64,000 nucleotides of DNA, taken from IMG/VR virus record IMGVR_UViG_3300033153_006411, positions 1 through 64,000 of that record; one strand, 5' to 3'. The notes under the pieces were generated by a model that saw only the letters and a program-made list of their open reading frames with translations, had not been told where the DNA came from and made no database searches. The stretch comes from a virus. Positions 62,428 through 63,033 of the stretch are shown piece after piece. The stretch's first letter is position 1. Each line of letters starts with the position of its first letter. The position numbers and the translations under genes were made by a program.

Positions 62428-63033
62428 ATGAAGATGGAAAACAATACAATCACGACCGTCAATGATCTCATCCGCATCGCGGATGATAATCATCCCACAG
62501 ACACCAATGCCGCTGTAGCTGCTGTCATCAAAGCGATGAAGAAACACAAGCAAAAAGATGACATGCAGGAGTTGCTTATCTCCGCAGGAATCAAGTTGCT
62601 TCTGAACGGCATTCGTTCCGAGAACAAATTCAAACCCTCACCTGTTGACGGGGTCACCACATTCGAGAGCCATAAAAACAAGTCCGACACCAAAGGCCAC
62701 AGCACCATCCGCCGTGCCACTCTTAAAACCACAGAACAGCGTGAAGGTACACGTAATGACATCATCGAGACCATACTCGATGAGGTTTATGGCTCCAACG
62801 GATACCGCATGAGCATCGGAAATGCAACCAAGCCGGTACTCCGCCACTGGGCTAAAATCGAAGGCAAGCAGGCGATTGGTCATACCCGCAACTATGATTT
62901 GTTCACTGCCATCGCAGATAGACTGCCCGATGACACCACCAAGGTTGTTGAGTCACTGGACGCTGACGACGTACTGTCTATCAAGTGTAAGACTCATGCA
63001 GTCGCCAAGGGTGAAACTCATGCAGCCGCGTAG
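62428..63033 (+). CDS. Uncharacterised protein embedded in the TIGR-like locus
   Basis: AGGAG RBS; lies between array 1 and the Nop-like gene and overlaps its start; no recognisable motif. Confidence 0.7.
   Translation: MKMENNTITTVNDLIRIADDNHPTDTNAAVAAVIKAMKKHKQKDDMQELLISAGIKLLLNGIRSENKFKPSPVDGVTTFESHKNKSDTKGHSTIRRATLKTTEQREGTRNDIIETILDEVYGSNGYRMSIGNATKPVLRHWAKIEGKQAIGHTRNYDLFTAIADRLPDDTTKVVESLDADDVLSIKCKTHAVAKGETHAAA

Follow-up and report, generated by a model that had tools for sequence, protein, structure and literature searches.

A probable second protein of phage stem-loop TIGR-TasA systems, encoded beside tasA

Introduction

When a gene without recognisable motifs overlaps the start of a gene for a nuclease-less, RNA-guided protein, the question arises of whether the two belong to one system or are merely neighbours. 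Such a pair lies near the end of the stretch analysed here (the window), which comprises the first 64,000 nucleotides of the 83,134-bp virus record IMGVR_UViG_3300033153_006411, estimated by CheckV to be 22% complete. The original prediction held that a nuclease-less Tas would need a partner for any output, and that the gene overlapping it was the obvious candidate. We refer to this gene as the partner gene, to its product as the partner (P0001) and to the TasA-like neighbour as P0002.

TIGR-Tas systems have been presented as compact single-protein RNA-guided tools (PMC12045711, 10.64898/2026.09.09.750476). Published tas loci number 20,096. In the text of Faure et al. (PMC12045711), TasA is said to be without 'clear associations with other proteins'; the same text notes that a parB-like gene, tasParB, on occasion shares an operon with tasA, in which case dual-repeat arrays are found 5' or 3' of the two genes or between them. 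TasParB is described there as dimerising via its C-terminal region and was modelled in complex with a TasA dimer. Published accounts of stem-loop TasA proteins (PMC12045711, 10.64898/2026.09.09.750476) have them binding processed guides and repressing transcription in E. coli, and mention no partner. Xu et al. 2026 (bioRxiv 10.64898/2026.09.09.750476) report, in work that includes an mTurquoise repression assay, that a TasA alone represses transcription in E. coli and that stem-loop arrays are processed there, for which the authors infer a host RNase, while their account leaves open the 'auxiliary factors' in stem-loop guide maturation. Because stem-loop TasA is active in E. coli without a partner, a partner is not generally required, and the claim that a nuclease-less Tas needs one for any output is not supported. 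The narrower claim, that this gene is a candidate partner, is the subject of what follows.

Results and Discussion

A gene pair between two stem-loop guide arrays

The features of the cassette are as follows.

61923-62357, + strand: upstream stem-loop TIGR-type array of six units (regular-expression listing of units, repeat families and stem covariation)
62422-62426, + strand: AGGAG ribosome-binding site (read from the sequence)
62428-63033, + strand: partner gene, the ORF under study, an open frame of 201 codons
62982-63029, + strand: 24-nt tandem duplication with copies 83% identical, spanning the partner 3' end and the tas 5' end (repeat analysis)
63020-63817, + strand: TasA-like gene, 265 aa, predicted coiled-coil and Nop-type RNA-binding domain, no nuclease domain
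63825-64108 of the genome, + strand, running past the window end at 64000: downstream stem-loop array of four units (regular-expression listing of units and covariation)

A pattern search of both strands finds ten array units, all of them on the + strand; leaving the stems aside, six span 61934-62346 and four span 63836-64097. Each unit is made up of a 9-11-bp stem, GAAGACC, an 11-nt spacer, a GTCGAATGACC-like segment, a second 11-nt spacer, GTCA and the 3' stem, and the units are joined by AAYTTA linkers. By eye, AAYTTA follows the 3' stem in nine of the ten units and Y is C (CUU) in five, a possible counterpart of the published CUU motif at the stem base. The stems vary among units yet stay complementary: over the six inner stem pairs 91.7% of cells are paired, compared with 28-53% when the opposing column is slid, and compensatory (two-sided) changes are present in five of the six. 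The units are thus of the stem-loop TIGR type described by Faure et al. 2025 (PMC12045711) and Xu et al. 2026 (bioRxiv 10.64898/2026.09.09.750476), and with six 5' and four 3' of the gene pair they confirm that the cassette is bounded by arrays, as had been proposed.

A tandem-repeat search (TRF) does not see the window arrays because their spacers are too variable, and an Rfam scan finds only two tRNAs. When the 20 spacers were compared with the 83-kb genome, matches with at most one mismatch occurred at chance level; five co-located A/B spacer pairs with at most two mismatches each (units u3, u5, u6 and u8) were also noted and may be chance matches. This search is weakly informative because the record represents, by estimate, only about 22% of the phage.

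The neighbour P0002 matches the NCBIfam model TIGR_Tas_endo with an E-value of 2.5e-13 and 50.5 bits (cut-off 100), over profile positions 54-213 of 215 only, and matches an IS110 model at positions 114-300 of 343, the C-terminal two thirds; it also matches phrog_4285 in PHROGs. A profile of a 29-sequence Tas family matches residues 140-297 of the 331-residue chain in PDB entry 9mty (E 5e-16) and, less strongly, TasH chains (E 2e-4). Searched alone, P0002 has no match in IMG/VR and one weak match among GenBank phages. Because P0002 is without the N-terminal nuclease part it is TasA-like, and as judged from its sequence it is a nuclease-less protein with a Nop-type domain. In this it resembles PlTasA, BlTasA and MbTasA as they are described, which are nuclease-less Nop-domain Tas proteins whose array units carry two spacers of ~11 nt in a variable stem, and whose arrays, as here, lie on both sides of tas.

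The partner gene is under purifying selection

The frame at 62428-63033 is open and could encode 201 amino acids, as originally predicted along with a strong ribosome-binding site. The AGGAG motif ahead of it is spaced 1 nt from the ATG at 62428 and 7 nt from the ATG at 62434, which makes a 199-aa product likelier than one of 201 aa, so that the open frame stands as predicted and its start is better placed at the second ATG. The partner's entry in the protein collection is 199 aa long, and the closest homologue starts at the same methionine.

The partner stop codon (TAG, 63031-63033) lies 14 nt past the tas ATG at 63020, and the predicted 14-nt overlap is seen with this start; it becomes 38 nt if tas starts at the ATG at 62996. 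Both starts are in frame and are products of the 24-nt duplication at the junction. Gene callers used the start equivalent to 62996 in the tas homologues P0009 and P0010, which are 273 aa long. A metagenome contig, L001, has the same partner-tas pair with the same 14-nt overlap, and the same 24-nt duplication is present at its junction.

Comparison of the partner gene with its 87%-identical copy in L001 gives 29 synonymous and 26 non-synonymous differences and a dN/dS of 0.23, with a corresponding value of 0.175 for tas. The partner gene is under purifying selection, and because of this dN/dS value and the existence of homologues it is more than a chance frame.

A partner gene adjoins tas in nearly all related loci

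Searching with an alignment of P0002 and seven database relatives (A3) yielded 21 IMG/VR loci with Tas proteins 23-39% identical to P0002; with L001 and the Rhizobium phage RHph_X2_25 (L002, from GenBank, found by tblastn) these make up a set of 23. Just 5' of tas in nearly every locus is a same-strand ORF of ~170-270 codons, and BLASTP matches connect these ORFs among themselves. As in the window, tas has a member of the partner family for a same-strand neighbour in 22 of the 23 loci; this member is 5' of tas in 21 of them and 3' of it in L022. Because the loci were retrieved through Tas, the figure states how often tas has a partner. The exception, L005, cannot be judged since its contig starts 177 nt ahead of the tas frame. 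Collapsing partners that are more than 60% identical leaves ~18 lineages. The gene neighbourhood is thus conserved with Tas homologues, which strongly supports the prediction that this gene is a candidate partner.

Family membership was assessed with an HMM built from P0001 and five database homologues (A2), which includes no sequence from the loci, against the 1,745 ORFs with 60 aa or more from the 23 loci and the whole genome. The window ORF and its counterpart in L001 are among the top 16 matches, and the other 14 are all ORFs immediately 5' of tas. E-values below 0.01 are reached by five of the 14 (L006, 1e-9; L010 and L004, 6e-6; L021, 7e-5; L014, 0.004), the remaining nine fall between 0.011 and 0.22, and the next two matches (0.35 and 0.88) sit elsewhere. 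A profile of the 22-sequence partner family alignment (A4) matches sequences outside that alignment with E-values of 5e-57 (L002), 1e-42 (L022), 9e-27 (L017) and 3e-5 (L023); its value of 4e-51 for the window ORF is that of a sequence within the alignment.

The reverse direction, from partner to tas, draws on few and partly redundant loci. Searches with a partner subfamily (A5) found tas directly downstream in all five IMG/VR matches, all on contigs already in the locus set, and in all four matches in Rhizobiaceae genomes, at least one of which is the same contig as L016. Among GenBank phages the sole match to a partner search is RHph_X2_25, with tas 412 nt downstream. Matching source and size suggest that the partner homologue P0005 and the Tas protein P0011 lie on one 2,562-nt contig, and that the same holds for two members of the P0004 cluster.

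Partner and Tas also diverge together. Their pairwise identities are correlated with r = 0.81 over 153 pairs from 18 loci, a value reached in none of 2,000 Mantel permutations, and the correlation among distant pairs is 0.53. The partner diverges faster, with a mean pairwise identity of 24.5% compared with 41% for Tas. A small and fast-evolving family of this kind would suit a passenger gene that is linked to tas by chance within a mobile cassette, but the adjacency spans the ~18 lineages with partners at most 60% identical, is found in a vent or sediment phage and in Rhizobiaceae prophages, and survives rearrangement, with the array between or outside the genes and with the partner downstream in L022. 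We therefore regard an unrelated passenger as extremely improbable.

The family occurs in both phage and prophage settings. Four of the five related records checked (L004, L007, L018 and L022, from G005, G004, G003 and G002) are classed as proviruses that are 99-100% complete, and genomes of Rhizobium, Shinella and Metarhizobium carry subfamily A5.

Family searches and comparison with TasParB

A HMMER search with P0001 of 1.84 billion representatives gives four relatives (88, 42, 30 and 35% identity), and a word-indexed collection of 5.8 billion proteins gives one more. Searched directly, P0001 has no relative in IMG/VR or among GenBank phages; the homologue P0005 has no IMG/VR match, the partner of L004 has none among GenBank phages, and a partner profile (A1) finds no IMG/VR match and a single metagenome locus, L001. 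Compared with the protein encoded upstream of tas in RHph_X2_25, P0001 gives nothing by BLASTP and an hhalign E-value of 0.018 with a probability of 2.6%, and the relation of the two emerges only via the larger family alignment.

Pfam and PADLOC give nothing meaningful for P0001, and PHROGs gives three weak matches (E 0.037 to 0.18) to families of unknown function. Two NCBIfam matches were set aside as noise, ParA_partition, with an E-value of 0.03 and 13.9 bits (cut-off 180), and a TrbH subfamily, with an E-value of 0.061 and a score far under its cut-off. Extending the searches to 22 family members, Pfam returns five single-member rows, which is at chance, and no helix-turn-helix (HTH) or other DNA-binding family, and PHROGs returns phrog_4604 (unknown function) for one of the 22 with an E-value of 1.6e-4. 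No PDB sequence matches the A1 profile. The A4 profile gives repeated weak 24-residue matches (E 0.004) to designed TPR repeats in the PDB, which were rejected as compositional. The earlier statement that the ORF has no nuclease, HTH or clear ParB motif agrees with Pfam, NCBIfam, PHROGs and a six-frame ParB_N search, and neither these family searches nor the conserved residues (see below) mark the partner as an effector enzyme, an HTH repressor or an RNase.

The resemblance to TasParB, as Faure et al. describe it, is in organisation: a second gene is operonic with a nuclease-less tasA, arrays surround the pair, and an accessory role is proposed. The arrays differ, those of TasParB being of the dual-repeat type with 10-nt edge and loop repeats, whereas here there are stem-loop units with covarying stems. 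The shared operon position and the arrays upstream and downstream of the pair (PMC12045711) would be consistent with the partner being a very diverged form of this ParB-like, CTPase-type protein, but a ParB_N signal is absent throughout: Pfam ParB_N matches none of the 22 partner members at E-values up to 0.1, a six-frame search of the genome gives no match where 11 of 14 control genomes are positive, there is no ParB_N near tas in five related phage records, and hhalign of the partner family with one ParB_N domain gives a probability of 0.08%. Nor is there a ParB chain among the fold matches listed for the better structural model described below (pLDDT 74; best E 2.2 in Foldseek and best Z 5.1 in VIA). 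With TasParB taken from its published description, identity of the two proteins is unlikely, and even a very diverged TasParB is a reading to which we give little credence. The texts covered on TIGR-Tas, TasParB and TasA accessory proteins contain no description of the partner.

Predicted structure and conserved residues

An AlphaFold2 model computed with the 22-sequence alignment is of moderate quality (mean pLDDT 74, pTM 0.37) and has the following parts.

about residues 11-67: N-terminal three-helix domain (model, pLDDT about 90)
residues 68-100: disordered linker (model), of varying length among members
residues 101-193: C-terminal domain (model, pLDDT 77-90)

The C-terminal domain is modelled as a helix, a beta-hairpin (120-129), a long helix (135-165) and two short helices. 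Structure prediction of the partner alone, which had been put forward as a check, thus provides two helical domains on a linker and no fold match. Searches with this model have no standout, either in Foldseek or in VIA-align over 48,161 chains, and those with a first model (pLDDT 58) gave best values of E 0.81 for Foldseek against the PDB, 0.08 against BFVD and Z 5.2 for VIA. An ESM Atlas model of the partner is poor (pLDDT 0.47) and has no usable look-alike. Fold searches without a standout show neither that the fold is new nor that a known fold is absent.

The best-kept columns of the family are small or hydrophobic, namely A133 (in 20 of 22 members), G125, L130, A29, D20 and T134. There is no conserved set of His, Cys, Asp or Glu among the 22 members and no catalytic-type residue is kept; the net charge of either domain ranges from -5 to +8 across members, with no conserved basic surface. 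The lack of catalytic residues and the swinging charge make an enzyme, or a constant nucleic-acid-binding surface, less likely and fit a protein-binding adaptor. The beta-hairpin and helix of the C-terminal domain were also considered as a dead HNH (beta-beta-alpha) motif. This was rejected, there being no conserved His, Asn or Cys and no TasH or HNH chain among the sequence and fold matches listed.

In box C/D RNPs a Nop-domain scaffold acts with small partner proteins (L7Ae, and fibrillarin with Nop5) on a two-guide RNA. The arrangement proposed here is similar in having a Nop-domain scaffold, a small partner and a two-guide RNA, and the likeness is one of analogy only. The partner model, with its two helical domains and one beta-hairpin, has neither the alpha-beta sandwich of L7Ae nor a Rossmann methyltransferase fold, and no L7Ae or methyltransferase chains are among the fold matches listed.

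Arrangement of partner, arrays and tas

The usual order in the related loci is partner, then array, then tasA, and further units often follow tas. In 19 of them the partner stop and the conserved Tas core are separated by 157-1,207 nt containing 1-11 hairpins with 8-bp stems and 28-50-nt loops, and in every sequence examined most such hairpins lie less than 700 nt from the pair (for example 12 of 14 in L004, 8 of 9 in L009 and 7 of 8 around the pair in the window). The window and L001 have a variant layout in which the genes overlap and the arrays lie outside the pair. Long-period tandem arrays with 73-80% matches were observed in L005 (283-979, units of 183/366 nt) and L017 (4241-4788, units of 111/222 nt), in each case immediately 5' of the Tas core and within the longest open frame.

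The position of the partner directly 5' of these hairpin units in the 19 loci would suit a helper in guide biogenesis, one that aids maturation of the stem-loop tigRNA or its loading onto TasA, for example by holding the precursor or by recruiting a host RNase. Set against this, catalytic residues are not conserved in the partner and none is constantly basic, Xu et al. (bioRxiv 10.64898/2026.09.09.750476) saw stem-loop arrays processed in E. coli in the absence of any such protein, and in the window the arrays lie on either side of the gene pair, not behind the partner. A biogenesis helper is an unlikely, though not a negligible, explanation and the first of the two main rivals to an adaptor, the other being a regulator.

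The partner might instead regulate the cassette, as an autoregulator or as an inhibitor or timer that restrains TasA as an RNA-guided repressor, without being a working subunit. In 21 of 22 loci the module opens with the partner gene, whose product evolves faster than Tas, as noted above, and in RHph_X2_25 (MW960032.1, 22599-26624) the partner-tas module lies in a regulatory region between genes for a 'repressor protein C' and an XRE-family protein, both on the opposite strand. All three points are compatible with a regulator, but no HTH or DNA-binding family is detected in the 22 members, and translational coupling suits a fixed stoichiometry equally. We consider such a role improbable.

A proposed role for the partner

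The reading that we favour, with a probability of roughly 0.6, is that the partner would be a dedicated, non-enzymatic accessory protein of a phage and prophage clade of stem-loop TIGR-TasA systems, as judged from gene neighbourhood, co-divergence and conserved residues. Whether it binds TasA is, on the same comparisons, an evenly balanced matter, and its action as an adaptor, the likeliest of the roles considered, is put forward more tentatively. Guide array, partner gene and tasA would be transcribed together, with translation of the partner coupled to that of tasA in this phage; the 14-nt overlap in the window and in L001 fits co-expression. One of its two domains could then hold the TasA-tigRNA particle, and the other could stabilise or pass on the DNA-bound state, for instance through a reinforced roadblock or the recruitment of a host or phage factor.

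In a stronger form, the large phage clade of stem-loop TIGR-TasA would consist of two-protein systems with the partner as an obligatory subunit, which would supply guide maturation or loading or would turn RNA-guided DNA binding into an outcome. We hold this stronger form to be possible and somewhat doubtful.

The papers on stem-loop TIGR-TasA (PMC12045711, 10.64898/2026.09.09.750476, 10.64898/2026.08.11.744272) present a single-protein system, whereas the loci described here carry a conserved second gene. The partner is thus probably a second, hitherto undescribed protein of the TasA system. If the two-protein reading is true, the 'single-protein' description of TIGR-TasA is incomplete for that clade. 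Because its family accompanies tasA in nearly every locus of the clade, the partner is a concrete and testable candidate, and it is one for the points left open in TIGR-Tas biology: the natural role of nuclease-less TasA, the maturation of stem-loop guides and the auxiliary factors. Should it be needed or add a function, it would bear on phage-phage and phage-host conflicts and on the engineering of TasA repressors. A cultured system is available in Rhizobium phage RHph_X2_25 (gene pair for QWY83252.1 and QWY83253.1) on Sinorhizobium americanum, where the location of the module in a region resembling those of lysogeny control hints at a possible role in immunity or exclusion.

Surrounding genes and occurrence

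Immediately 5' of the cassette, at 61612-61788 but on the − strand, are two tRNA-Leu genes with anticodons CAA and GAG. Further upstream are a glutaredoxin gene (60835-61080, E 4e-16) and a gene for a stand-alone HNH endonuclease (59800-60453, Pfam HNH E 6e-5); the latter is 2.5 kb from the cassette, past several genes and the two tRNAs, and has no link to it. A gene for an HD-domain protein (genome coordinates 64111-64554, − strand, HD_4 E 1e-11) follows the downstream array.

A 103-aa ORF at 61052-61363, upstream of the tRNAs, has a homologue at 377-721 of L001 in the same relative position, so synteny with L001 reaches beyond the cassette. Contigs of four DNA runs from four studies of hydrothermal-vent and sediment metagenomes contain most of the cassette (61850-64200) with no differences, indicating that the phage recurs in such samples; the runs listed as matching the cassette are all DNA runs, with no RNA run among them.

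Within tas itself, at 63329-63385, there is an 8-bp hairpin whose 41-nt loop contains TGACC, at the same offset as a hairpin at 2682-2738 of L001. It has neither the 5' GAAGACC nor the 3' GTCA box and may have arisen by chance; guide units embedded in tas genes are reported by Xu et al. (bioRxiv 10.64898/2026.09.09.750476).
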